DNA of 51,838 nt, from positions 1 through 51,838 of the forward strand of contig CAZNBS010000002.1 in NCBI GenBank assembly GCA_964570955.1. Direction: 5' to 3'. This DNA comes from an uncultured Burkholderiales bacterium. GTDB taxonomy: Bacteria; Pseudomonadota; Gammaproteobacteria; Burkholderiales; SHXO01. The notes beneath the pieces were generated by a model. The model was not told the DNA's origin. It made no database searches and was given only the letters and a program-made list of their open reading frames with translations. The position numbers and the translations under genes were made by a program. This document shows positions 943-49,676 of this stretch, piece after piece (position 1 is the first letter of the stretch; every line of letters starts with the position of its first letter).

Positions 943-2763
943 ATGTGCGGCATCGTCGGCGCCGTCGCGCGGCGTAACATAGTTCCGGTATTGTTGGAGG
1001 GCCTCAAGCGGCTTGAGTATCGAGGCTACGATTCGGCTGGAATCGCTGTCCTGAATGGTGGCCTGCAGCGCTGGCGGACTTCCGGCCGCGTCGCCGAGCT
1101 CGCTGGCCTCGCCGAGCGCGAGCTCGCTTCCGGCGCGACTGGAATCGCACATACCCGGTGGGCCACGCACGGCGTTCCTTCGGAGCGCAACGCCCACCCT
1201 CACGTGTCCAGCGGTCTCGCCGTGGTGCACAATGGCATCATCGAGAATCACGCAGGCATGCGCAGGCGGCTCGAGGACGTGGGCTATCGGTTCGACTCCG
1301 ATACGGACACGGAAGTCATTGCGCACCTCATTCACCGGCACCTGAGCTCGTCGCGCGACTTGTTGGCCGCAGTCGCGGCGGCGATCGCCGAGCTGGATGG
1401 CGCCTATGCGATCGCGGTCATCGCGCAGAGCGAACCGGACCACATAATCGTTGCCCGCAAGGGCGCCCCGCTCGTGCTTGGCGTTGGTGAAGGCGAGAGA
1501 TTCGCGGCGTCGGACGTGTCTGCGCTCCTGCAAGTCACCCAACGGGTCGTCTACCTCGAGGAAGGCGATGTCGCCGAGCTGCGTGTCGACGGGCACCGCA
1601 TCGTCGACGACGCCGGAAAACCGGTCGAGCGGCCCGTGCACGAGAGCAACTTGACGTCCGCCTCTGTCGAGCTTGGCCCCTACCGCCACTTCATGCAGAA
1701 GGAGATATTCGAGCAACCCGGCGCAGTGGCGAATACGCTCGAGCTGGTGGCAAACGTGAAATCCGTAGCCCCGCAGCTCTTCGGTGCCGAGGCGGAAAGT
1801 CTTCTTCGCGACGTCGATGCAGTGCTTGTGCTCGCGTGCGGAACGAGCTTTCACGCCGGGGCAGTCGCTCGTTACTGGATCGAGTCGATCGCGGCCATAC
1901 CCTGTGCAGTCGAGATCGCAAGCGAGTACCGCTACCGCCGCACCGTGCCGAATCCGCGTCAGCTCATCGTGACCATTTCGCAATCCGGAGAGACCGCAGA
2001 CACGATTGCCGCGCTCAGGCACGCAGTATCGCTCGGTCAGGAGCGCACGCTCACGATCTGCAATGTGCCAGAGAGCGCGCTGGTTAGGCAGTCCAAGTTG
2101 CGGTTTCTCACCCGTGCTGGTCCGGAGATTGGCGTCGCGTCGACCAAGGCGTTCACGACGCAGCTCGCGGCGCTATTCCTGCTCACGCTGGTGCTCGCCC
2201 GGCTCCGTGGGAGGCTCGGCGACTCCGAGCAGGGCCAGCACCTCACGGCGTTGCGGCATCTCCCATCTGCGCTGCAGGCTGTGTTGGGATGCGAATCCGA
2301 GGTTATCGGGTGGGCCCGGCGCTTTGCTTCGAAGCATCACGCGCTGTTCTTGGGTCGCGGAATCCATTATCCGATCGCATCAGAAGGCGCGCTTAAGCTG
2401 AAGGAGATTTCCTATATTCACGCCGAGGCTTATGCAGCCGGGGAGCTCAAGCACGGACCGCTCGCCCTTGTGGACAGCGATATGCCCGTTGTTGCTGTAG
2501 CGCCAAGCGATGCTCTGCTGGAGAAGCTCAAGTCGAATCTGCAGGAGGTTCGCGCCCGAGGCGGCGAGCTCTTCGTCTTCGCAGATCGCGATGCGCAAAT
2601 CGAGGACGGAGCCAATGTCATTCGTCTCACGGATTACGCCGGAGCCCTGTCGCCAATCCTGCACGTTGTGCCATTGCAGCTGCTCGCCTATCACACCGCC
2701 ATCGAGCGCGGAACCGACGTGGACAAGCCGCGGAACCTCGCCAAGTCGGTGACCGTGGAGTAG
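943..2763 (+). CDS. glmS: Glutamine--fructose-6-phosphate aminotransferase (isomerising)
   Basis: 606 aa. N-terminal MCGIVGAV class-II amidotransferase nucleophile, two SIS domains ([20 protein letters not shown]), canonical C-terminus AKSVTVE. RBS GGTGGAG a few nt upstream of the ATG. Confidence 0.97.
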
Positions 2764-7637: not shown

Positions 7638-9197
7638 ATGGACGATCAGCTTAGACAAGTAATGACCTCTCTGCATGGGATGTGGCGTCGCCGGTGGGTC
7701 GGCCTGACAGCCGCCTGGATCGTCGGCATCATCGCTGCGATCGTCGCTCTCAAGACTCCCGAGCAGTACGAGGCAACTGCGCGCTTCAAGATCGATACCC
7801 AGTCGATTCTTCGGCCGCTTCTGTCAGGCCTCGCTGCCGAGGCTGAGCTGCCGGAGCCCCATGTACAGGTCGCGATGCTGAGCAGGACTCTAGTGAGCCG
7901 CCCGAACGTACAGCGACTCGTCCAAGCTATCGGAATCGACAAGAGCAACACGGATCCGGCGGAAGTGGACGAGCTGGTCTCGGACCTCCTGCAACGTATC
8001 AAGGTGATCAGCGAGGGCGAGGAGTTGGAGGTTTTCACGCTTTCGGTGCGTCATCCGGATCCTGAGATGGCCGAGCGAGTCGCCGGCGGTATGGTCACCG
8101 TGCTGATGGAGTCGACTGCCGGATTGAAGCGCCAGGATGCCGATCAGGCCCAGAAGTTCCTCGACGAGCAGATCAAGCTGTACGAGCATCGGCTCGACGA
8201 GGCGGAAAGCCGCTTGAAGGGCTTCAAACTGCGCAACTTGCAGCTTACGGGCGAGGGACGTGACTATCTCACGCGCATGAGCGTCGCGCAGGAGGAACTC
8301 GGCAAGGCGCGGCTCGAGCTGCGTGCTGCCGAGAACTCCCGCGACGCACTGAGGCGGGAACTCGCAGGCGAGCAGCCGATAGTGCTGGCGCAGCCGGAAA
8401 ACATGACGCGCATGGCGGTTCCCGAGATCGACGGACGGTTGGACGCGCAACGCAAGCAGCTTGACGAGCTCAAGCGCCGGTATACCGACGCCCACCCCGA
8501 CGTGGTGGCGACGAAGCGCTTGATCGCGCAGCTGGAGACGGAGCGCAAGCAGATCATTCAGGCACGCCATCAGGCTGCAGCGTCAAGTGGTGGCAGCCTG
8601 TCCGACAACCCCGTGATTCAACAGCTCCGGGTTTCGCTCTCCACGGCCGAGGCGAACGTGGCGTCGCTCCAGGCGCGTGTCGCGGAGCTGAACTCCCGCT
8701 ACGCGACGATGCGTGCGGAAGCAGAGCGTATGCCGCAGATCGAAGCGGAGCTTGCGCAGCTGAATAGAGACTACGACGTTCAGCACAAGAACTATCAGGA
8801 ACTGATCGCGCGGCGCGAAGCCGCCGGTATGTCCGGTCGAGTGGGGGCTGCCGGCGTCGACGCCAGATTCCGCGTGATCGAGCCGGCGCGCGCGTCGCGC
8901 GAACCGGTGATGCCGACCCGGCTCGTAATGCTGGTCGGTGCGCTTGCTGCTGCGCTTGCAGCGGGGCTTGCCGCGTCGCTGGCAGCGAGCCTAGTCGCCC
9001 CCGTAGTGCACGACACCCGTGCGCTGCGGGAAGTTGCGCAGCGCCCGGTATTGGGCGCTGTGTCAATGGCATCCAGCAAGACGCAAGCATCGAGGGAGTT
9101 TCGCCACGGCGCAGCGTTCCTAGGCGGCCTGGGCGGGTTGATCGCGATCTTCTTCGTCCTGCTTTACGTTATGACCGTCGCAGTACCAAAGATCTAA
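7638..9197 (+). CDS. Polysaccharide chain-length determinant (Wzz/PCP family, PEP-CTERM-locus type)
   Basis: 519 aa. N-terminal TM (WVGLTAAWIVGIIAAIVAL), long coiled-coil periplasmic region, C-terminal TMs. Position between the export protein and the kinase. Confidence 0.85.
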   Translation: MDDQLRQVMTSLHGMWRRRWVGLTAAWIVGIIAAIVALKTPEQYEATARFKIDTQSILRPLLSGLAAEAELPEPHVQVAMLSRTLVSRPNVQRLVQAIGIDKSNTDPAEVDELVSDLLQRIKVISEGEELEVFTLSVRHPDPEMAERVAGGMVTVLMESTAGLKRQDADQAQKFLDEQIKLYEHRLDEAESRLKGFKLRNLQLTGEGRDYLTRMSVAQEELGKARLELRAAENSRDALRRELAGEQPIVLAQPENMTRMAVPEIDGRLDAQRKQLDELKRRYTDAHPDVVATKRLIAQLETERKQIIQARHQAAASSGGSLSDNPVIQQLRVSLSTAEANVASLQARVAELNSRYATMRAEAERMPQIEAELAQLNRDYDVQHKNYQELIARREAAGMSGRVGAAGVDARFRVIEPARASREPVMPTRLVMLVGALAAALAAGLAASLAASLVAPVVHDTRALREVAQRPVLGAVSMASSKTQASREFRHGAAFLGGLGGLIAIFFVLLYVMTVAVPKI

Positions 9198-14924: not shown

Positions 14925-15997
14925 CGCGCGACCAGACCGAATTCACGGAGACTGGGCACCGCGTAGGTCAGATCGCGGTGAAGAGCCTGGGCGATGCCGA
15001 TGAAAGGCGCTGGGACGCTTTCGTCGAGAGCTGTCCAGAGGCGACCTTCTTCCACCGCGCTGGTTGGCGCACCATCCTCCGCTCGATCTTCGACCACCGA
15101 ACGCACTACCTGTACGCCGAGCGTGACCGCGAAATCGTAGGAGTGCTCCCGCTTGCGGAAGTAAGAAGCCGAATCTTCGGTCACTCGATGAGCTCGTTGC
15201 CTTTCTGCGTGTACGGCGGCGTCGCCGCGACAGATCCCGCCGCGACGCGAGCACTGCACTCGGCGGCGCGCGCACTAGCGGTGCGACGGGGCGTGGCCCA
15301 TCTCGAGTTGCGCAACCGCGAGGTGCGGGAGCCCGAATGGCCGCGACAGGACCTCTACGTGACCTTCAGGAAACCGATCCTGAACGACGCCGAGGCGAAC
15401 ATGCTCGCCATTCCGCGCAAGCAGCGCGCAATGGTGCGCAAAGGCATGAGGAACGGCCTGTCCGCCGAGATTGACGAGTCGACCGAGAGGTTCTTCAGGC
15501 TCTACGCGGACAACGTGCATCGGCATGGCACGCCTGCACTTCCGAAAGGTTATTTCGACGCGCTGCGCAAGACCTTCGGCGAGCAATGCGAGGTGCTGGT
15601 GGTCGTCGACTCCGAGCGACGGCCAGTCTCGAGCGTTCTGTCCTTCTATTTCCGCGACGAAGTGCTCCCCTACTATGCGGGCGATCACGCGCGTGCCCGC
15701 GACCTGGCCGCCAATGACTTCAAGTACTGGGAACTGATGCGCAGGGCCGCCGAGCGCGGCGCTAGCGTATTCGACTACGGGCGCAGCAAGCGCGGAACCG
15801 GATCGTACGACTTCAAGAAGAACTGGGGCTTCGCGCCGGCCCCGCTTGCCTACGAGTACTGCCTGCTCAAGGGTGAGACGATCCCGCAGAACAATCCGTC
15901 GAACCCGAGGTATCGAGCGTTGATAGCGGCGTGGCGACGGCTGCCGATCGGGATCGCCAATGCGCTGGGGCCGTTCATCGTGCGCAACCTCGGTTGA
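14921..15997 (+). CDS. FemAB-family protein, PEP-CTERM-system-associated type
   Basis: GTG 14921 overlaps the upstream TGA (GTGA). An alternative ATG at 14882 lies inside the upstream gene. Motifs FFHRAGWRTIL and FDYGRSKRGTGSYDFKKNWGF. The track ORF start at 14762 is rejected because its N-terminus is Arg/Ala-rich. Confidence 0.85.
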   Translation: MTRDQTEFTETGHRVGQIAVKSLGDADERRWDAFVESCPEATFFHRAGWRTILRSIFDHRTHYLYAERDREIVGVLPLAEVRSRIFGHSMSSLPFCVYGGVAATDPAATRALHSAARALAVRRGVAHLELRNREVREPEWPRQDLYVTFRKPILNDAEANMLAIPRKQRAMVRKGMRNGLSAEIDESTERFFRLYADNVHRHGTPALPKGYFDALRKTFGEQCEVLVVVDSERRPVSSVLSFYFRDEVLPYYAGDHARARDLAANDFKYWELMRRAAERGASVFDYGRSKRGTGSYDFKKNWGFAPAPLAYEYCLLKGETIPQNNPSNPRYRALIAAWRRLPIGIANALGPFIVRNLG

Positions 15998-16005
15998 CCC
16001 CGGAC

Positions 16006-17289
16006 ATGGAGCCGCTTCTCTTCCTGTCGCATCGCATTCCCTATCCGCCCAACAAGGGCGACAAGGTGCGCTCGTACCATCTCCTCGCCTTCCTTGCGCA
16101 GCGGTTTCGCGTCTTCTTGGGCACCTTCATCGACGATCCCGCCGACACCGCGCATGTGGACGCCGTGAAGGGGCTTTGCGCGGGAGTGTGCGCCGTCCGC
16201 ATGCGCCCGCCGCTTGCGCGACTGCGCGGTCTCCAGGGTCTGGTGACCGGCGCACCGCTTTCGGTCCGTTGCTACCGCGATCGCGGGCTCGCTCGCTGGG
16301 TTGCGGACACAGTCGTACGGCACCGGATCCGCAAGGCGCTGGTGTTTTCGTCCGTGATGGCCCAGTACGTCGAGGGTATCGACGATATTCGCGCCGTCGT
16401 CGACTTCGTCGACGTCGATTCCGACAAGTGGCGCCAATACGCATCGCGTCACCCGTGGCCGGTTTCGATGCTGTACGCGCGCGAGGCGAGGACCCTGCTT
16501 CGATTCGAGCGGTCCGTGGCGCGAGTCTCGGCGCACAGCGTGTTTGTCACGCCGGAAGAGGCGAAGTTGTTCGCTTCTCTCGCTCCGGACGTGGATCGGG
16601 AGCGGATCGTCGCGATAGGCAATGGCGTGGACGCCGGATACTTCACGCCCGAGCCGCAGCGCCGCTCGCCGTTCCCGTCCGACGAGGAGGCCATTGTCTT
16701 CACCGGAGCGATGGACTACTGGCCAAACGTCGACGCTGCTGCCTGGTTCGCTGCCGAGGTGCTTCCTCGGATCGCGGCGGCGCGGCCCGCCGCGAGATTC
16801 TATGTCGTCGGAATGAATCCGGCCCCGGCGGTACGCGCACTCGCGCGTGCGGGCTCGGTTGTCGTCACCGGAAGAGTGGCGGACGTCCGGCCCTTCCTCC
16901 AGCACGCACGGGTGGTGGTGGCGCCGCTTCGGGTCGCACGCGGGATCCAGAACAAGGTGCTCGAGGCGATGGCGATGGGACGACCCGTCGTCGCATCGCG
17001 CGCCTGCGCCGGCGCGCTATCCGCGGTTCCCGGCGTCGAGTTGGAGGTGGCCGGGTGCGCCGAGGAGTTTGCCGCCACGACCGTGCGGTTACTTCGGGAC
17101 TCTCGCCAGGAGCAGCTCGGGCCCGCCGCACGCTCGCGGGTGCTCGCGGACTACAGTTGGGAAGCGAATCTCTCACGCCTCGAAGCCCTGCTAAGGGGCC
17201 AATTCCGGCCGCACGCATCCGCCTCGCACCGGCAGAGCGACACCAGGGACGGCGTCCCGGCCGCCGCAGAGAGTCTGCGGGGGAGCTAA
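16006..17289 (+). CDS. GT4 glycosyltransferase (sugar transferase of PEP-CTERM/EpsH1 loci, first of pair)
   Basis: ATG 16006 gives MEPLLFLSHRIPYPPNKGDKVRSYHLL, the N-terminal signature of this family. C-terminal GT1/GT4 domain (GIQNKVLEAMAMGRPVVAS). Confidence 0.85.
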   Translation: MEPLLFLSHRIPYPPNKGDKVRSYHLLAFLAQRFRVFLGTFIDDPADTAHVDAVKGLCAGVCAVRMRPPLARLRGLQGLVTGAPLSVRCYRDRGLARWVADTVVRHRIRKALVFSSVMAQYVEGIDDIRAVVDFVDVDSDKWRQYASRHPWPVSMLYAREARTLLRFERSVARVSAHSVFVTPEEAKLFASLAPDVDRERIVAIGNGVDAGYFTPEPQRRSPFPSDEEAIVFTGAMDYWPNVDAAAWFAAEVLPRIAAARPAARFYVVGMNPAPAVRALARAGSVVVTGRVADVRPFLQHARVVVAPLRVARGIQNKVLEAMAMGRPVVASRACAGALSAVPGVELEVAGCAEEFAATTVRLLRDSRQEQLGPAARSRVLADYSWEANLSRLEALLRGQFRPHASASHRQSDTRDGVPAAAESLRGS

Positions 17290-17294
17290 GCCGA

Positions 17295-18482
17295 GTGGTT
17301 ACCGGTCAATCCGCTCCCCGCCTCATCGCGCACGTCGTGCACAGCTTCGCGGTCGGCGGCCTGGAGAACGGCGTGTGCAACCTCATCAACCGGCTGCCGT
17401 CCGATCGCTGGCGGCATGCGGTCGTTGCGCTGACGGATGTATCCGCCGAATTCTGCCGCAGGATCGAGCAGAACAACGTGATCTTCGAGGCGTTGCACAA
17501 GGGGCCCGGCCACAGCATCGCGATCTACCCGAGGCTCTACCGGCTGTTCCGCGCGCTGCGCCCGTCCATCGTGCATACGCGGAACCTGGCCGCGCTGGAG
17601 GCGACGCTCCCCGCCTGGGCGGCGGGGGTCAAGGTGCGCGTCCACGGCGAGCATGGGCGCGATGTGCTGGATCTCGACGGCTCGAGCCGCCGGTACCGTC
17701 TGGTGCGTCGGATGTTCAGCCCGTTCGCAACGCGATACATCGCGCTGTCGAGGGACCTCGAGGGGTATCTCCGCGACCGGATCGGAATCCGCGCCGATCG
17801 GATTCTGCAGATCTACAACGGCGTCGACACCACCCGGTTCCACCCGGCCATCGACGGGCGGGAGCCGATCGACGGCTCGCCGTTGCGCGGCGCCGGTCTG
17901 TTCGTCGTCGGCACCGTCGGGCGGATGCAAGCGGTCAAGGACCAGACGAACCTGGTCCGGGCTTTCGTGCGAGCGCTCGAGATCGAGCCAGCCGCACGCG
18001 AACGGCTGCGGCTCGTCATCGTGGGCGACGGGCCGCTGCGGGAAAAGGCGCTCGGGCTTCTCCACGGGGCGAATGCCGGTGCGCAGAGTTGGTTGCCCGG
18101 CGAGCGTAGCGACATCCCGGCGGTGCTTCGCGGAATCGACTGCTTCGTGCTTCCGTCGCTGGCCGAGGGAATCTCGAACACGATCCTGGAAGCCATGGCG
18201 ACCGCGTTGCCGGTCATCGCGACGCGGGTCGGCGGAAATGCCGAGCTCGTCGACGACGGGACTTCGGGCGTCCTTGTTCCGGCGGCCGACAGCGACTCGC
18301 TTGCCCGCGCGATTCTGCGCTACGCAAAAGCGCCCGAGCTTGCCAGACGTCATGGCGCGGCTGGACGACGGCGCGTCGAGCACCTCTTCAGCCTCGACCG
18401 AATGGTCGAACGCTATTCGGCATTCTACGAGAGCCTGCTCGAGTCAGGGACTCGTCGCCAGGCGGTAGCGCAGAGTAGCTGA
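17295..18482 (+). CDS. GT4 glycosyltransferase (sugar transferase of PEP-CTERM/EpsH1 loci, second of pair)
   Basis: GTG 17295 lies 5 nt after the upstream stop. LIAHVVHSFAVGGLENGVCNLIN, EGISNTILEAMATALPVIATRVGGNAELV. The listed 840-aa ORF (15960..18482) is an in-frame artefact upstream of this start. Confidence 0.85.
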   Translation: MVTGQSAPRLIAHVVHSFAVGGLENGVCNLINRLPSDRWRHAVVALTDVSAEFCRRIEQNNVIFEALHKGPGHSIAIYPRLYRLFRALRPSIVHTRNLAALEATLPAWAAGVKVRVHGEHGRDVLDLDGSSRRYRLVRRMFSPFATRYIALSRDLEGYLRDRIGIRADRILQIYNGVDTTRFHPAIDGREPIDGSPLRGAGLFVVGTVGRMQAVKDQTNLVRAFVRALEIEPAARERLRLVIVGDGPLREKALGLLHGANAGAQSWLPGERSDIPAVLRGIDCFVLPSLAEGISNTILEAMATALPVIATRVGGNAELVDDGTSGVLVPAADSDSLARAILRYAKAPELARRHGAAGRRRVEHLFSLDRMVERYSAFYESLLESGTRRQAVAQSS

Positions 18483-18509: not shown

Positions 18510-20435
18510 GTGTGTGGCATCGCTGGCATTCTGGACAGCCGTGGGCAGCGTGAGATCTCCCGCGCCGCGCTCGAGCGGATGAACGACAGCCAGTATCACC
18601 GCGGGCCGGACGAGGGCGGCCTGCATGTCGAGCGCGGAGTCGCCCTCGCCCACCGTAGGCTATCGATCATCGATCTGTCGACTGGACAGCAACCACTCTA
18701 CAACGAAGACCGCAGCGTGGTCGTCGTCTTCAACGGCGAGATCTACAATTACCAGGCGCTCATCCCGGAGCTGACGGCGCTCGGACACCGATTCCGCACG
18801 AGAAGCGACACCGAGGTGATCGTGCACGCGTGGGAGGCATGGGGCGAAGCATGCGTAACGCGATTCCGTGGAATGTTTGCATTCGCCCTCTGGGACCGCG
18901 GTCGCGAGACGCTGTTCCTCGCCCGCGACCGCCTCGGAGTCAAGCCGCTCTACTACGCCGCGCTTCCTGACGGGACTATCGTCTTCGGTTCGGAGCTGAA
19001 GGCGCTCCTCGCCCACGGCGCATTGCGCCGCGACCTCGACGCTCTCGCGATCGAGGAGTACTTCGCGCTTGGCTACGTGCCGGAGCCGCGCACGATCTTC
19101 GCCGCTGCGCGCAAGCTGCCGCCGGCTCACACCCTGGCGATCAGGCGAGGCGCCCCGGTTCCCGCGCCGGTCGAGTACTGGGATGTCCGCTTCACGCTGG
19201 ATAACCGCATCTCCGATAGCGATGCCCAGGCCGAGCTAATCGAGCGGCTGCGCGAGTCCGTTCGGCTGAGGATGGTGTCGGAGGTTCCGCTCGGCGCATT
19301 CCTTTCGGGCGGAGTCGACTCGAGTGCAGTTGTTGCGACGATGGCCGGTCTCTCGAAGGAGCCGGTGCGCACCTGCTCGATCTCCTTTACCGACCCGCTG
19401 TTCGACGAGTCTCGACACGCCGCGACGGTGGCGGAGCGGTACGCGACCGTGCACCACGTCGAGCAGGTGGACAGCGACGACTTCGGTCTGCTCGAAGAGC
19501 TGGCGCGCATCTACGACGAGCCGTACGCGGACAGCTCGGCGATTCCGACATACCGCGTATGCCAGCTCGCGCGCAAGCGCGTGACGGTTGCCCTGTCGGG
19601 CGACGGTGGTGACGAAAGCTTCGCGGGCTATCGGCGATACCGACTCCACGTCGCGGAGGAAAGAATGCGGCACGCGCTGCCGCTCGCCCTCCGTCGACCG
19701 GTCTTCGGTCTTCTCGGGCGGGTCTATCCGAAGGCCGACTGGGCACCGCGCGTTTTCCGGGCGCGCAGCACGTTCCAGGCGCTCGCACGGGAAACGGTAG
19801 CTGCCTACTTCCATGGCGTTTCTATCCTCCGGGACGACATGCGGGGACAGCTGTTCAGCAATGCGCTCAAGGCGAAGCTCGGAGGCTACAACGCAGTCGA
19901 GGTATTTCGCCGGTACGCGCAAAAGGCGGAGACGAGCGATCGCCTCGGCCTCGTTCAGTATCTCGATCTGCACACGTACCTGGTCGGCGATATCAACACG
20001 AAGGTCGACCGCGCGAGCATGGCCCATTCCCTCGAGGTGCGGGAGCCCCTCATGGACCACTGTCTCGTAGAGTGGCTCGCCAGCCTGCCTTCGGATCTGA
20101 AGGTGCGCGCCGGCGAGGGCAAGTATCTGCTCAAGAAGGCTATGGAGCCGTATCTCCCGCACGACATCCTCTACCGGCCGAAGATGGGGTTCGCCGTCCC
20201 GCTCGCACGATGGTTCCGGGGCCCCTTGCGGAACCGTGTACGCGAGAGTCTGCTGGGCGACCGCCTGGCGGACACAGGACTGTTCAACCTGCGCTACGTA
20301 CGGCATCTGGTCGAGAGTCACGAATCCGGGCTGCGCGACTACAGCGCTCCGATCTGGACTCTATTGATGTTCGAGAGCTTTCTTCGCGCGAGCTTCGAGA
20401 GCCCGTCCCTGTACGCGCATGAGCGTAGCGCATAG
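18510..20435 (+). CDS. Asparagine synthase (glutamine-hydrolysing) family amidotransferase, exosortase-A-locus type
   Basis: 641 aa. GTG-TGT start gives MCGIAGIL, so the catalytic N-terminal Cys is present. PP-loop FLSGGVDSSAV. GGGAGAAG RBS. Confidence 0.93.
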   Translation: MCGIAGILDSRGQREISRAALERMNDSQYHRGPDEGGLHVERGVALAHRRLSIIDLSTGQQPLYNEDRSVVVVFNGEIYNYQALIPELTALGHRFRTRSDTEVIVHAWEAWGEACVTRFRGMFAFALWDRGRETLFLARDRLGVKPLYYAALPDGTIVFGSELKALLAHGALRRDLDALAIEEYFALGYVPEPRTIFAAARKLPPAHTLAIRRGAPVPAPVEYWDVRFTLDNRISDSDAQAELIERLRESVRLRMVSEVPLGAFLSGGVDSSAVVATMAGLSKEPVRTCSISFTDPLFDESRHAATVAERYATVHHVEQVDSDDFGLLEELARIYDEPYADSSAIPTYRVCQLARKRVTVALSGDGGDESFAGYRRYRLHVAEERMRHALPLALRRPVFGLLGRVYPKADWAPRVFRARSTFQALARETVAAYFHGVSILRDDMRGQLFSNALKAKLGGYNAVEVFRRYAQKAETSDRLGLVQYLDLHTYLVGDINTKVDRASMAHSLEVREPLMDHCLVEWLASLPSDLKVRAGEGKYLLKKAMEPYLPHDILYRPKMGFAVPLARWFRGPLRNRVRESLLGDRLADTGLFNLRYVRHLVESHESGLRDYSAPIWTLLMFESFLRASFESPSLYAHERSA

Positions 20436-23796: not shown

Positions 23797-25204
23797 CATC
23801 TACACCCGGCTAGTCGCGAAGTGCCTGTTTCCTTTCCATGAGCGGCTGAAGGGGCACGATACCGTGCAGCGGCGAAAAGCGCTCGAGGCCAGCCAGTGGT
23901 GGCCAGTTGACCGCTTGGAGAGTCATCGCGTGCTCGGGCTGCGACGGCTGCTCACGCATGCCGGCCAACATGTGCCGTACTATCGACGGTTGTTTGCTAC
24001 CGCCGGCTTCGACCCGGCGAAATTGCAGAAGACGGGCGACATAGAGCGACTGCCCTTCCTGACCAAGGATCTCGTCCGGGCGAATCTCGACGCGCTCAAG
24101 TCATCGCGAGCGGAAAAGCTGCTGAGATTCAACACCGGGGGCTCGAGCGGCGAACCCCTGATTTTCTACGTCGGCACAGAGCGTGTCAGCCACGATGTGG
24201 CGGCCAAGTGGCGCGCGACGCGCTGGTGGGGTGTGGACATAGGCGATCCGGAGATCGTGGTCTGGGGATCGCCGATCGAAATCGGCGCCCAGGACCGGGC
24301 CAGATACGTGCGTGATCGCATCCTGCGCACGCGACTGCTACCAGCCTTCGAGATGTCAGAACGAAACCTCGATCGTTTTGTCGCGCAGATCCGACGCTCG
24401 CGCCCACGGATGCTGTTCGGGTACCCGTCGGCGCTCGCGCACATTGCGGCGCACGCCGAGCGTCGGGGCGAGTCGCTTTCGTCGCTTGGCATCAAGGTCG
24501 CATTCGTCACTTCGGAGCGCCTGTACGATCACCAGCGGCTGCAGATCGAACGGTCCTTCGGGTGTCGGGTGGCGAACGGATATGGCGGCCGTGACGCCGG
24601 ATTCATCGCGCACGAGTGCCCCAGCGGTGGCCTGCATGTAATGGCAGAGGACGTCATCGTCGAGATCGTCGACCCGGACGGACGCGTCGTCGCACCCGGG
24701 GAGGCTGGCGAGATCGCCGTCACCCATCTCGCGACGCGAGATTTTCCGTTCGTGCGGTACCGCACTGGAGACGTTGGATCGATCGAGGCGACGGCGTGTC
24801 CGTGCGGACGCGGCCTGCCGCTGCTCAAGGAAGTCCACGGTCGAAGCACGGATTTTGTCGTCGCGCAGGACGGCACAGTGCTGCACGGGCTGGCCCTGAT
24901 CTACGTACTGCGGGACTTGCCGGGGATACGTCAGTTCAAGATCGTGCAGGAAACGCTCGATTCCGTGCGGGTTGAGCTCATTGCCGAGGGTGCGCTCGAT
25001 AGAAGGATTGTGCACATGATTGAGAGTGGCTTCAGGGCACGACTCGGGCCAACGGTGAACGTGGCGGTCGAGCCGGTGCAGTCGATCGCACCCGAACGCT
25101 CGGGGAAGTTCCGGTACGTCGCGAGCCGTGTGGATCCGAGCGCACGCTCGACGCCGAAGCGCCACGGCCGCGTGCAGCTCGGGGCAAAGGCGACCTGCAA
25201 ATGA
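23789..25204 (+). CDS. Phenylacetate-CoA ligase-like adenylate-forming enzyme (PaaK / CapK / F390-synthetase family)
   Basis: ATG 23789 (ATGCATGA overlap with the upstream stop). Motifs FNTGGSSGEPLIFY, ANGYGGRDAGFIAHEC, VRYRTGDVG, SGKFRYV. Confidence 0.8.
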   Translation: MHDIYTRLVAKCLFPFHERLKGHDTVQRRKALEASQWWPVDRLESHRVLGLRRLLTHAGQHVPYYRRLFATAGFDPAKLQKTGDIERLPFLTKDLVRANLDALKSSRAEKLLRFNTGGSSGEPLIFYVGTERVSHDVAAKWRATRWWGVDIGDPEIVVWGSPIEIGAQDRARYVRDRILRTRLLPAFEMSERNLDRFVAQIRRSRPRMLFGYPSALAHIAAHAERRGESLSSLGIKVAFVTSERLYDHQRLQIERSFGCRVANGYGGRDAGFIAHECPSGGLHVMAEDVIVEIVDPDGRVVAPGEAGEIAVTHLATRDFPFVRYRTGDVGSIEATACPCGRGLPLLKEVHGRSTDFVVAQDGTVLHGLALIYVLRDLPGIRQFKIVQETLDSVRVELIAEGALDRRIVHMIESGFRARLGPTVNVAVEPVQSIAPERSGKFRYVASRVDPSARSTPKRHGRVQLGAKATCK

Positions 25205-38660: not shown

Positions 38661-40133
38661 TCATGCACGGCGAGTCTCCATCCAACGATTGACGCTCGAG
38701 AACACGGTGGCCTCCGCGCCGTGCGGTCGCCCGACGACCAGCCACAACATCGTCGCGAGGCCGAGGTAGCAGAGCACACCGAGCGCCACCGCCGATACGA
38801 GTCCGGGCAGGTTCGCGGCGGGAGCGCCCGGGGCGACCACGTACCAATGCACCAGCAGCGCCATTCCAAGCGCCGCGGCCAACGGGCGCCATAACACCCG
38901 CAAGAGCTCGTACAGCCGGATCTGCAGCTCCCGCATCACCAGCCAGAAGCTGAGCGGAAGAAAAATCGCCCAGGACACCAGGATTGCGACGAGCGCGCCC
39001 TGCAGCCCGTTCCACATCGCAAGTAACGGCAAGAGCACTACGAGGACGGCTCCCTGAACCGACGTTGCGGCAGCATCAATCCACGGCTTGTTGATCGCCA
39101 GAAACACCGCCGAAGAGTTCGAAAGCAGCACGTGCGCAGCTCCCGCCACAGCGAGCGCTTGTACGACGACGATCGCCTCGAGCCACCGCTCCCCCAGTAA
39201 CACGGGTACCGCAAACGGAGCGACTGCTGCGATTCCCAGCGCGGCGGGAAGGCCGAGCGCCGCAATGAGGCCGAGGGCCGCCAGGTAGTGCCTGCGCAAT
39301 GCGTCCTTGTCATGGGAGAGCTTCGCATACCCTGGATAGACCGCCCGGTCGATGGGCGCAACCAGTTCTGTGGTCGGGAGCCGAGCGAGCTCCGCGCCGA
39401 CCGAGTAAACGCCAACGTTCGCTACGCCAGCGATGCGCCCGAGGACGAACGTCGCGAAGTGGAGCGGGATGAAGTCCGCCAGATTGGTGACCACTACCCA
39501 ACGTGAAAAGCCGAAGAGCTCGCGCCAGTGCTTCAAGCAGAACCGCGGTCGGTACGGATGCGCCAAGTAGCTGAGCGCGACACCCACCGCGACACCGGCC
39601 AGAATGCCGAGCATCAGCGCCCAATAGTTGCCCAGCAAGAACGCAAGAGGGATGGTCGTCATGAACATCGCAAGCTTTCTCCCGCCGAGGTAGAGAAACT
39701 CCTTGCGGAAATCGAGTTCCTTTCGAAACGCAACGACGCCGATATTGTTGAATCCGCCGATCACCGCTACCAGCGCCAGCATCGCCATCAGCGGCACAAG
39801 CCGTGGCTCGTTGAAAAACCACGCCGCCGGAAAAGCGATCAAGAGCAGACATAACCCGTAGAGCATCAGAATCAGCAGCTCGAGAGTCCATGCCGTGTCG
39901 TAATGCTCGCGGGTCGCGCGCTGGTCGCGGATAAGCGCCAGATCGAAACTGAAATCCGCGAAGACATCGAGCAGCGCCGAGATCGAGATCGCCATTGCGA
40001 CCAGGCCGAAATCCTCGGGCAGGAGCAAGCGAGCGAGGATCAGCGTGCTGAGGAACCCGAGCCCACGCTCGACGAATCTGGCGAGAAGCATCCATGCGGC
40101 GCCAACCGCGATTCGCTGTCCGAAGTTAGTCAT
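38661..40133 (-). CDS. Wzx-like oligosaccharide flippase (MOP superfamily polysaccharide biosynthesis protein)
   Basis: 490 aa, about 12-14 TM segments. The N-terminus AWMLLARFVERGLGFLSTLILARLLLPEDFGLVAMA is typical of Wzx/RfbX-type proteins. Confidence 0.88.
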   Translation of the reverse strand: MTNFGQRIAVGAAWMLLARFVERGLGFLSTLILARLLLPEDFGLVAMAISISALLDVFADFSFDLALIRDQRATREHYDTAWTLELLILMLYGLCLLLIAFPAAWFFNEPRLVPLMAMLALVAVIGGFNNIGVVAFRKELDFRKEFLYLGGRKLAMFMTTIPLAFLLGNYWALMLGILAGVAVGVALSYLAHPYRPRFCLKHWRELFGFSRWVVVTNLADFIPLHFATFVLGRIAGVANVGVYSVGAELARLPTTELVAPIDRAVYPGYAKLSHDKDALRRHYLAALGLIAALGLPAALGIAAVAPFAVPVLLGERWLEAIVVVQALAVAGAAHVLLSNSSAVFLAINKPWIDAAATSVQGAVLVVLLPLLAMWNGLQGALVAILVSWAIFLPLSFWLVMRELQIRLYELLRVLWRPLAAALGMALLVHWYVVAPGAPAANLPGLVSAVALGVLCYLGLATMLWLVVGRPHGAEATVFSSVNRWMETRRA

Positions 40134-41187: not shown

Positions 41188-42567
41188 GTGATCAGCTTCT
41201 CGCGTCAGTACGTCCCGGTGGCGATCCTGGTGCAGGTCGTCATGGAAGCGCTGCTTCTTTCCGCGGTCGTGATCCTCGCGATCAAGCTCAACCCGAACCA
41301 CGACGGTCCGATCAGCCGGGAGACGATCGCACTTGCGATCTTCTTCACGGCGGTTGTGATCCCGCTGAGCGCCGCATTTGGCCTTTACACTGCTAAGCCC
41401 AACCGGCCAACGGCAAGAGCAATCGCGCTGACCGCGTTCATGCTGCTCGTGGGAGCGGGCGCCGTATATGCGGCCTCATATCTGATGCCGCAGGGGCGGC
41501 GCTTGCAGGACGCCCTTGCCGTCGCGATGGTCGTCGCCCTGCTCGGGATCATCGCAATCCGCCAGTTGATGAGGATCGTGATACGCCAGCGGTCCGCGAG
41601 TCACCGGGTGTTGATCGTCGGCACTGGGGCCCAGGCGGTGATGGTGGCAAGCGCCCTTTCCGAGGTCCAGTCGAAGGGGTTCAAGGTGGCAGGCTTCTAC
41701 GCGGCTAACGATGGCGCCGAACCGCTGATCCCGAAGGAGCAGATCGTCGCCGAAGAACCGATTGACCTGGCTGCACGACGCCTCGGTGTGAGCGAGATCG
41801 TTGTTGCTGTTGCCAACCAGCGCGGTGGCGTGCTTCCGCTGCGGCAACTGCTCGAATGCAAGGCGCACGGACTGCGCGTGACCAACCTTTCCGGTTTCTT
41901 CGAGCGCCTTCGTGGCGAAGTGCCCATCGAGACCCTCAAGGCGAGTTGGCTGATCTACGGTGACGGTTTCAAGCAAGGCCGGGCGCGTGCCTTCGCAAAG
42001 CGCCTGACCGATATCTTGGCCTCCGTCATCCTGCTTACGCTCGCAGCACCGGTGATGGCCATAACCGCGCTCGCCATCCTGATCGAATCCGGGCGGCCGA
42101 TACTCTACCGTCAGGAGCGAGTGGGGCGCGGCGGGCGTGCTTTTACGGTGATCAAGTTTCGCAGCATGCGTCAGGACGCCGAAAGGGATGGTGCGCGTTG
42201 GGCGGCGAAGAACGATGACCGCGTCACGCGCGTCGGCCGCCTGATCCGCCGGTGTCGTATCGACGAAATCCCACAGCTCTTCAACGTGCTGACCGGTGAT
42301 ATGAGTCTCGTCGGCCCGCGCCCGGAGCGCCCAAAGTTCGTGGAGGCCTTGACGGCGGAGATTCCGTTCTACGCGCTGCGTCATAGCATGAAACCCGGCG
42401 TCACCGGCTGGGCTCAGGTGCGGTTCCACTACGGCTCCTCCGTCGACGATGCGCGGCGCAAGTTGCAGTACGACCTCTACTACGTCAAGAACAACTCCCT
42501 TGCGCTTGACCTGTGGATACTGCTCGAGACGATCCGGGTGGTAATCCTGAGAGAGGGAGCCCAGTAG
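41188..42567 (+). CDS. Polyprenyl-phosphate glycosyl-1-phosphate transferase (bacterial sugar transferase, PEP-CTERM-locus EpsB-like priming enzyme)
   Basis: 459 aa, GTG start. The N-terminus MISFSRQYVPVAILVQVVMEALLL resembles this family. C-terminal catalytic domain KRLTDILASVILL..., ILYRQERVGRGGRAFTVIKFRSM, PQLFNVLTGDMSLVGPRPERP. Confidence 0.9.
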   Translation: MISFSRQYVPVAILVQVVMEALLLSAVVILAIKLNPNHDGPISRETIALAIFFTAVVIPLSAAFGLYTAKPNRPTARAIALTAFMLLVGAGAVYAASYLMPQGRRLQDALAVAMVVALLGIIAIRQLMRIVIRQRSASHRVLIVGTGAQAVMVASALSEVQSKGFKVAGFYAANDGAEPLIPKEQIVAEEPIDLAARRLGVSEIVVAVANQRGGVLPLRQLLECKAHGLRVTNLSGFFERLRGEVPIETLKASWLIYGDGFKQGRARAFAKRLTDILASVILLTLAAPVMAITALAILIESGRPILYRQERVGRGGRAFTVIKFRSMRQDAERDGARWAAKNDDRVTRVGRLIRRCRIDEIPQLFNVLTGDMSLVGPRPERPKFVEALTAEIPFYALRHSMKPGVTGWAQVRFHYGSSVDDARRKLQYDLYYVKNNSLALDLWILLETIRVVILREGAQ

Positions 42568-48557: not shown

Positions 48558-49676
48558 TCAGATGTCCAGGTAGTAGAACACCACGGCGAAGATCCCGTCC
48601 ACGGCGACGATCAGCACGATGCCGCTCACGACCGCGCTGGTCGCCGAGAGCCCGACCGCCGAGGCGCCGGTGCGCGTCTGCAGGCCGCGCAGGCAGCCGA
48701 CCCCGGCAACCAGCACGCCGAACACCACCGACTTGAACAGGCCGCCGAACAGGTCGTTCAGCTGCACGCGGTTCACCACCTGCAGATAGTAAGTGTAGAG
48801 CGGGATCTCGAAGAGTTGCATCACCATGGCGCCGCCGAGCAGGCCGATCAGCACCGCGAAGGCGCTCAGGAGCGGCATCATCGCCACTGCCGCGAGCATG
48901 CGTGGCACGACGAGAAAGCGCACCGGGTCCAGACCCATCGTCTCGAGCGCGTTCACCTCGTCGTTCACCTTCATGGTGCCGATCTCCGCGGCAAACGCGG
49001 CGCCCGAGCGGCCGGCGAGCAGAATCGCGGTCATGAGCGGGCCGAGCTCGCGCGTCATCGCCAGGCCGACCAGGTCCGCGACGAAGATCTCGGCGCCGAA
49101 CTGGCGCATCGAGATCGCCGACTGGAACGCGAGGATGACGCCCATCAGGAAGCCGATCAGCGCGACGATCGGCAGCGCATTGACGCCCGCCTCCTCGGCG
49201 ACGAGCAGCACATCGCGCCAACGCACCGACGACGGGCGGCGCAGGGCGCCCGCGAGCGCGGTGAGCGCCTCGCCGACGAACGCGACGAGCGCGTAGAGCC
49301 CGACCCAGACCCCGCGACCTGCGCGGCCGAGCCGCTCGACGACCGAGCCGGGCGCCTCGCGCGGCGGAGGCGGTGCGCGGAACTCGGCTGGATCGAACTG
49401 CTCGAGCAGACGGCCGAAACCCTCGCGCAGCCCCTCGATCCGCACCTCCGCGCCGGGCCGGCGCTCGGTGCCCAGCAGATCCACCAGCATCGCGATCCCG
49501 GCGCCGTCACAGTACTCGACGCGGCTGCAGTCGACGACGAAGGGCCGGTCGGGGCTTCCTGCGAGCGCGCGCTTCGCGTCGGCCCAGACCGGCCCGAGCG
49601 AATGCGCGTCGAGCCTTCCGGCCAGCGCGAGCCCGCGGGTCGCACCGTCCGGGGGGGTGATGGTGAGCTCGGCCAT
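48558..49676 (-). CDS. MlaE-like ABC permease fused to an N-terminal STAS domain
   Basis: ATG 49676 gives MAELTITPP.... STAS-like LAGRLDAHSLGPVWADAKRAL...FVVDCSRVEYCDGAGIAMLVDLL, followed by the MlaE core GVNALPIVALIGFLMGVILAFQ and ELGPLMTAILLAGRSGAAFAAEIGTMKVNDEVNALETMG. Confidence 0.88.
   Translation of the reverse strand: MAELTITPPDGATRGLALAGRLDAHSLGPVWADAKRALAGSPDRPFVVDCSRVEYCDGAGIAMLVDLLGTERRPGAEVRIEGLREGFGRLLEQFDPAEFRAPPPPREAPGSVVERLGRAGRGVWVGLYALVAFVGEALTALAGALRRPSSVRWRDVLLVAEEAGVNALPIVALIGFLMGVILAFQSAISMRQFGAEIFVADLVGLAMTRELGPLMTAILLAGRSGAAFAAEIGTMKVNDEVNALETMGLDPVRFLVVPRMLAAVAMMPLLSAFAVLIGLLGGAMVMQLFEIPLYTYYLQVVNRVQLNDLFGGLFKSVVFGVLVAGVGCLRGLQTRTGASAVGLSATSAVVSGIVLIVAVDGIFAVVFYYLDI

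Follow-up and report, generated by a model that had tools for sequence, protein, structure and literature searches.

The stretch of DNA analysed here (the window) comprises 51,838 nucleotides (nt) of contig C2 from the metagenome bin of an uncultured Burkholderiales bacterium. It carries a polysaccharide gene cluster of the kind that in other genomes of the order travels with exosortase A (XrtA). In relatives, xrtA and epsI, usually as a single fused gene encoding ~520 amino acids (aa), most often lie between two paired glycosyltransferase genes, here called stp1 and stp2. In the window these two genes stand directly side by side, and the slot between them is only a few nucleotides wide. The features of this junction are as follows.

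16006..17289, + strand: stp1, first paired GT4 glycosyltransferase (TIGR03087), 427 aa; 540 bits against a cut-off of 317
17280..17285, + strand: GGGGAG, Shine-Dalgarno-like motif for stp2, within the 3' end of stp1; read from the sequence, 9 nt before the GTG
17290..17294, + strand: spacer GCCGA; the site of xrtA-epsI (~1.6 kb) in 37 of 58 complete genomes of the order
17295..18482, + strand: stp2, second paired GT4 glycosyltransferase (TIGR03088), 395 aa; 522 bits against a cut-off of 409

The TAA stop codon of stp1 (17287–17289) and the GTG start codon of stp2 (17295–17297) are separated by 5 nt, a spacing that the original prediction, made from the letters alone, had noticed and that both the sequence and gene calls in five other assemblies confirm. 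The ATG at 16006 is the likely start of stp1, and the GTG at 17295 is the only in-frame start codon just 5' of the conserved N-terminus of stp2. GGGGAG at 17280–17285 may serve as the Shine-Dalgarno sequence of stp2, and the two genes are probably translationally coupled; no promoter-like or terminator-like site was found at the junction. An 840-aa frame (15960–18482, + strand) spans all of stp1 and then stp2, and could trick gene callers into reporting a fused glycosyltransferase. We rejected such a fusion, the frame being a high-GC read-through that overlaps stp1 in another phase.

The reality of the junction can be judged from independent assemblies. An exact protein look-up places the stp1 product on six contigs of the public Logan assemblies, and on none of these is there an insert between stp1 and stp2. 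The five contigs that were examined, each from a different run, match the window at 99.8–100% nucleotide identity across 2.8–13.3 kb. All five share the same junction 25-mer, with stp2 beginning 5 nt past stp1, and gene calling on them yields identical 427-aa and 395-aa products at the same 5-nt spacing. The exact protein of the priming transferase (EpsB2) occurs on 11 further contigs from other runs. At least 12 runs hold window genes, with the locus kept at 99.8–100% identity, in a look-up that is not exhaustive (two genes of one contig have just one listed run in common). Runs with this population include SRR28430726, SRR11288142, SRR30765736, SRR23136764, SRR21689239, SRR12072159, SRR12072162, SRR12072163, SRR21689238, SRR10580906 and SRR23136763. 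Because the same junction recurs in five independent assemblies, the empty slot is fixed in the population and is not an assembly error; the population carrying it is widespread.

An exosortase-A-type cluster without its exosortase

Six-frame searches of the whole assembly (E ≤ 10) with hidden Markov models (HMMs) for XrtA (TIGR03109), exosortases in general (PF09721, TIGR02602), EpsI (TIGR02914) and PEP-CTERM (PF07589) gave no match in the window. Likewise, tblastn with the XrtA-EpsI proteins of nine relatives (E ≤ 100) detected no trace of either gene in the window, junction included; at the junction the only matches were wrong-frame noise, produced by the 5' extensions of the query proteins. 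There is accordingly no TIGR03109 match of 208 bits or more, our mark of exosortase A, in or near the locus, and no TIGR02914 match fused to or adjoining XrtA, which would identify an A-type EpsI. A hydropathy scan of the window returned only four polytopic open reading frames (ORFs), namely the O-antigen-ligase-like protein at 25201, the flippase at 38661 (− strand), the priming transferase at 41188 and MlaE at 48558 (− strand), and no ORF in the window ends in a PEP motif followed by a transmembrane (TM) helix and a basic tail. Together, the HMM and hydropathy scans rule out a missed exosortase, or other polytopic protease, in the window. The original prediction had held that the window contains no exosortase, EpsI or PEP-CTERM ORF and only these four polytopic ORFs, none of them exosortase-like. 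Both statements stand, the first on the six-frame HMM and tblastn searches and the second on the hydropathy scan, and the overlooked exosortase ORF against which it had cautioned was searched for in the window and not found.

The remainder of the cluster and its edges comprise the following genes.

943..2763, + strand: glmS, a housekeeping gene bounding the cluster on the left; 831 bits
6903..7562, + strand: XrtA/PEP-CTERM-system polysaccharide export protein (TIGR03027); 237 bits against a cut-off of 180
7638..9197, + strand: XrtA-system chain length determinant (TIGR03007); 473 bits
9208..10128, + strand: XrtA-associated tyrosine autokinase (TIGR03018); 252 bits
10140..11870, + strand: PEP-CTERM-system outer membrane protein (TIGR03016); 241 bits
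11880..12887, + strand: XrtA/PEP-CTERM-system ATPase (TIGR03015); 376 bits
12897..14060, + strand: UDP-GlcNAc 2-epimerase WecB; 308 bits on TIGR00236
14070..14924, + strand: XrtA-system polysaccharide deacetylase (TIGR03006); 442 bits
14921..15997, + strand: FemAB-family XrtA-system protein (TIGR03019); 511 bits, with the start taken from a 358-aa gene call in the independent assemblies
18510..20435, + strand: XrtA/PEP-CTERM-system amidotransferase, AsnB-like (TIGR03108); 1073 bits
20444..21670, + strand: stp3 glycosyltransferase (TIGR04063); 621 bits
25201..26520, + strand: putative O-glycosylation ligase, exosortase A system-associated (TIGR03097); 452 bits, 7 hydrophobic segments
38661..40133, − strand: MOP/Wzx-type flippase; 168 bits on NF007773, below the model cut-off; 11 hydrophobic segments
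41188..42567, + strand: EpsB2 priming glycosyltransferase, XrtA/PEP-CTERM system (TIGR03013); 498 bits
45612..49790, − strand: Mla/Pqi-like genes for a lipid ABC transporter, bounding the cluster on the right

All 11 of the system-specific accessory families (TIGR03027, TIGR03007, TIGR03018, TIGR03016, TIGR03015, TIGR03006, TIGR03019, TIGR03108, TIGR04063, TIGR03097 and TIGR03013) are represented above their curated cut-offs; WecB and the flippase are cluster members outside these families, and every cluster gene in the window is full length. On contig C2 the sequence reaches 16 kb upstream and 34 kb downstream of the junction, with housekeeping genes at both edges, those on the right being a lytic transglycosylase and the Mla/Pqi-like ABC genes. 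Since glmS on the left and the Mla-like genes on the right both lie inside the window, the whole cluster is on the contig, and XrtA has not simply moved within it.

The gene set and order are those of the canonical XrtA/PEP-CTERM (EpsH) loci (Haft et al., 2006; PMC1569441) and of the zooglan-type floc clusters of Zoogloea and Aquincola (PMC9850573; epsSMASH preprint, 10.64898/2025.12.21.693542), running from export protein, chain-length determinant, tyrosine kinase, TIGR03016 protein and ATPase through WecB, deacetylase, FemAB, stp1 and stp2 to the AsnB-type protein, stp3, the TIGR03097 protein and EpsB2. The difference from canonical XrtA loci is the lack of xrtA-epsI; the presence elsewhere in the bin of PrsK, PrsR and PrsT (PrsK/R/T) and of PEP-CTERM cargo is a further likeness.

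Gene order in the order, the family and beyond

How strictly XrtA accompanies such clusters is seen in a survey of 200 genomes of the same order, each at least 95% complete. Fifty-eight of these carry stp2 above cut-off, and all 58 carry XrtA above cut-off as well. XrtA lies between stp1 and stp2 in 37, adjoins one of them (within ~2 kb) in 55 and is found within 6 kb in 57, in agreement with the gene order that the original prediction had given. A distant XrtA is in itself rare among complete genomes, a single one of the 58 (G184) having it on a contig separate from both stp1 and stp2. PrsK follows XrtA almost as closely, with both present in 58 survey genomes, PrsK only in two and XrtA only in three. 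Exosortase B (XrtB) is found in 34 survey genomes, 14 of which are without XrtA.

The same holds closer to home. In the genus set (28 genomes, the entire family), all members with stp1 and stp2 on one contig carry an XrtA-EpsI fusion of ~520 aa. In six members the fusion separates the two genes, and in one (G024) it adjoins stp2. The window's genome is the sole case with stp1, stp2 and PrsK but no XrtA, and so is unique among 59 comparable genomes.

Two further pairs of survey genomes deserve mention. G060 and G168, both 98% complete, have PrsK above cut-off without XrtA, stp1 or stp2, possibly a partial loss of the system. In G051 and G173 the cluster is split from stp2, and XrtA lies ~20 kb from PrsK, with stp1 adjacent (G173) or 4.7 kb off (G051), which may mark a preferred second site for the sortase.

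Loci around relatives of stp2 (160 retrieved) show what other arrangements occur. Direct adjacency of stp1 and stp2 is seen in five (L068, L119, L159, L170 and L210), and since canonical loci surround each of them on the stp2 tree, adjacency must have arisen repeatedly, at least five to six times independently. The junctions of L170 and L210, both metagenome contigs, are as tight as that of the window, or overlapping. XrtA is kept in Aromatoleum diolicum 22Lin (L119, NZ_WTVQ01000024), where it follows asnB at a distance of 3 kb; in the Rhodocyclaceae bin from which L068 comes (JANNNT010000232), ~4 kb downstream, with a second XrtA on a 1.6-kb contig of that genome; and in the survey genome G146, 5.8 kb off. 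These three share the empty slot with the window, but their XrtA/EpsI is 3–6 kb away in the cluster, whereas the window's cluster has none.

Absence of XrtA, seen in none of the 58 survey genomes, occurs among ~140 further loci in one cultured clade, the Sphaerotilaceae strains Piscinibacter sp. MQ-18, P. defluvii SH-1 and Methylibium rhizosphaerae C1-9. These keep femAB-stp2-asnB and have XrtB, the XrtB/EpsI pair being their sole exosortase type. They have also dropped stp1 and PrsK and retain few PEP-CTERM genes (3–12), whereas the window keeps stp1, and PrsK/R/T as well as at least 11 genes for cargo are present in its bin.

In the closest stp2 relatives (60–64% identity; L163, L145, L058, L041 and L148) the order is femAB-xrtA/epsI-stp2, and stp1 was not detected in the retrieved flanks of these five loci. 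The slot from femAB to stp2 thus holds the XrtA-EpsI fusion alone in these loci and stp1 without XrtA in the window. The varied orders around xrtA mark the region as a rearrangement hotspot. No DNA spanning the junction was found in the 28 genomes of the genus set or in public genome and metagenome contigs, where identity to the stp2 protein is at most 64%.

Cargo, regulators and exosortase B elsewhere in the bin

The bin consists of 515 contigs totalling 5.23 Mb, is 86.7% complete and 5.8% contaminated, and has no contig shorter than 1,511 bp. Within this assembly, ~1,030 contig ends included, neither HMM searches (E ≤ 10) nor tblastn detected XrtA or an A-type EpsI, even as a fragment. The best TIGR03109 match, at 142.7 bits, is well short of the 208-bit mark, and the protein concerned is the XrtB encoded on contig C403, which TIGR03109, PF09721, TIGR02602 and tblastn with the nine XrtA-EpsI proteins all leave as the sole exosortase contig. 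There XrtB (TIGR03113, 374 bits against a cut-off of 275) is followed by EpsI type B (NF045609, 240 against 220), so that an exosortase B system, XrtB with its adjoining B-type EpsI, is present. C403 is 3.3 kb long (locus L003, 1–3286). Downstream of EpsI-B lie a truncated second copy of EpsI-B (138 aa) and an ORF for a polytopic membrane protein, and the GC content falls from ~68% to 53% past the truncated copy, at about position 1900. The contig may fuse the XrtB loci of two organisms at the EpsI gene, or mark a recent insertion. The identity of its XrtB to that of the same genus (55%) and to those of other families (53%) draws no distinction.

The only other EpsI match in the bin is a B-like pseudogene with five stop codons (2 TGA, 3 TAG) on contig C25 (20845–21339; locus L030, 3846–4340). 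Its neighbours, in a polysaccharide island of lower GC, are the genes of a beta-barrel protein and a flippase-like protein, and no exosortase remnant is detectable beside it.

PEP-CTERM cargo is plentiful: 11 PF07589 matches exceed the cut-off in the bin (three being our minimum for a cargo set), none of them in the window. Each of the 11 proteins combines a VPEP, IPEP or APEP motif with a TM helix and a basic, Arg-rich tail, placed at the C-terminus or close to it (within ~35 residues of the stop in one protein), and six of the 11 genes are on contigs of typical tetranucleotide composition. Two XrtB-only genomes of the survey encode 17 and 67 PEP-CTERM proteins, so a cargo set as large as this one is compatible with XrtB alone. 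The regulators are encoded on contig C124, where PrsK, PrsR and PrsT score 873, 737 and 673 bits, and two more PrsT paralogues are present in the bin; the assignment of C124 to the same organism as C2 rests on binning. The PrsT of C124 leaves the contig end at model position 774 and C43 opens with PrsT model positions 745–898; with such matching ends the two contigs are probably neighbours, and their adjacency would put a PEP-CTERM gene (C43, 10575–11552) and a second PrsT ~11–13 kb downstream of PrsK/R/T.

The original prediction had posed a choice between an exosortase-independent derivative of the system and a sortase and cargo encoded elsewhere, and had proposed a genome-wide search with exosortase, EpsI, PEP-CTERM and PrsK/PrsR/PrsT models. 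That search, now run, yields at least 11 cargo proteins, PrsK/R/T and an XrtB/EpsI-B pair; the XrtA/EpsI pair that would have reduced the case to a split locus did not appear in the 86.7%-complete assembly, the pair found being of the B type. "Encoded elsewhere" therefore applies to the cargo, to PrsK/R/T and to an exosortase pair, but, within this assembly, not to XrtA. For cargo and regulators the system is indeed split. "Exosortase-independent", on the other hand, is too strong as worded, because the bin holds an exosortase; "exosortase-A-less" fits the data.

Loss of XrtA or a distant copy

The reading that we favour is of an exopolysaccharide operon of the exosortase A type (zooglan-like, Wzx/Wzy-dependent), complete and intact, in which xrtA-epsI is absent from the slot where most relatives have it. 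The organism would no longer have an exosortase A, its polysaccharide machinery would still function with no need of the sortase, and its PEP-CTERM proteins, at least 11 in number, would be processed by the bin's one exosortase, the XrtB/EpsI-B pair encoded at another locus. We give about even odds that xrtA has truly been lost and that XrtB is the sole exosortase. That a full XrtA-type system of polysaccharide genes, PrsK/R/T and PEP-CTERM proteins persists without any XrtA, its cargo handled by XrtB or by no sortase at all, we would place a little below even. We infer that XrtA is absent from the organism and not merely from its assembly; XrtB would then serve the cargo, and the polysaccharide is presumably still made.

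Precedent is offered by the 14 survey genomes, and likewise the three cultured strains, that have XrtB without XrtA. Both proteins of C403 exceed the cut-offs of their families, XrtB and EpsI type B, and XrtB-only, cargo-rich genomes are known in the same order; XrtB lies outside the window, and its link to this polysaccharide locus is putative. Disruption of epsH in Methylobacillus sp. 12S left methanolan production unaffected (Haft et al., 2006; PMC1569441), which supports the idea that the polysaccharide genes can work without the sortase.

Several points weigh against a real loss. In a 515-contig bin of this completeness and contamination, with no contig below 1.5 kb, a poorly assembled stretch could conceal a gene of ~1.6 kb. 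All complete stp2 genomes have XrtA, and as PrsK closely tracks XrtA, the retention here of PrsK/R/T together with stp1 resembles an XrtA-positive genome, unlike the XrtA-less isolates, which are without PrsK and stp1. The processing by XrtB of cargo normally served by XrtA is putative. C403 itself may be chimeric or mis-binned, and exact look-ups of its EpsI-B and of two start variants of its XrtB gave no match in other assemblies. Finally, the exact PrsR protein is found in six runs, none in common with the 12 that hold window genes; in a look-up that is not exhaustive, this disjoint set is a weak warning on the binning.

The same facts feed the strongest alternative, to which we give a chance somewhat below even: that the locus is split, xrtA-epsI having moved out of the operon to a distant site among the ~13% of the genome that escaped assembly or binning, and that this is an ordinary XrtA system in an unusual order. 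The presence of XrtA in every complete stp2 genome and the retention here of PrsK/R/T, stp1 and cargo are what such a split would predict. XrtA is still present in the traceable genomes with adjacent stp1 and stp2 (A. diolicum 22Lin, the L068 bin and G146), G184 shows that it can stand on a contig apart from both, and the second XrtA of the L068 genome shows how easily the gene ends on a tiny contig. Yet in those traceable genomes XrtA never left the cluster, and the cluster of the window is devoid of it from end to end; just one of the 58 complete genomes has XrtA apart from stp1 and stp2 alike; and none of the ~1,030 contig ends carries a fragment of XrtA or A-type EpsI. A distant copy would need to fall in the missing 13–25% of the assembly.

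Much less probable is a decaying system, in which, after the loss of XrtA, locus and cargo are turning into pseudogenes and the polysaccharide/protein matrix is not made. The XrtA-less Piscinibacter/Methylibium lineage, with its further losses of stp1 and PrsK and only 3–12 PEP-CTERM genes, and the EpsI-B-like pseudogene on C25 would suit such a course. Against it, the cluster genes of the window are full length and score well above family cut-offs, the locus is 99.8–100% conserved across at least 12 runs, and the PEP-CTERM tails are intact. Least credible of all is an artefact of assembly or strain collapse, with xrtA-epsI truly in the slot and skipped by the assembler: bubble-popping can drop strain-variable inserts in a fragmented metagenome bin such as this, but the junction is identical base for base in five independent assemblies, and no insert occurs on the six contigs with the exact stp1 protein.

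A loss of XrtA would bear on how the system is understood. XrtA accompanies its polysaccharide genes so strictly, in 58 of 58 complete genomes, that they are annotated as one system; to our knowledge, a role of XrtA for the polysaccharide has not been established. Annotation pipelines, moreover, label genes "XrtA system" by homology even where XrtA is absent. A natural lineage that keeps everything but XrtA would be a test both of whether the polysaccharide needs the sortase and of whether XrtB can serve PEP-CTERM cargo. If the organism does have no XrtA at all, XrtA would be replaceable, and the polysaccharide machinery that travels with it would be independent of it.

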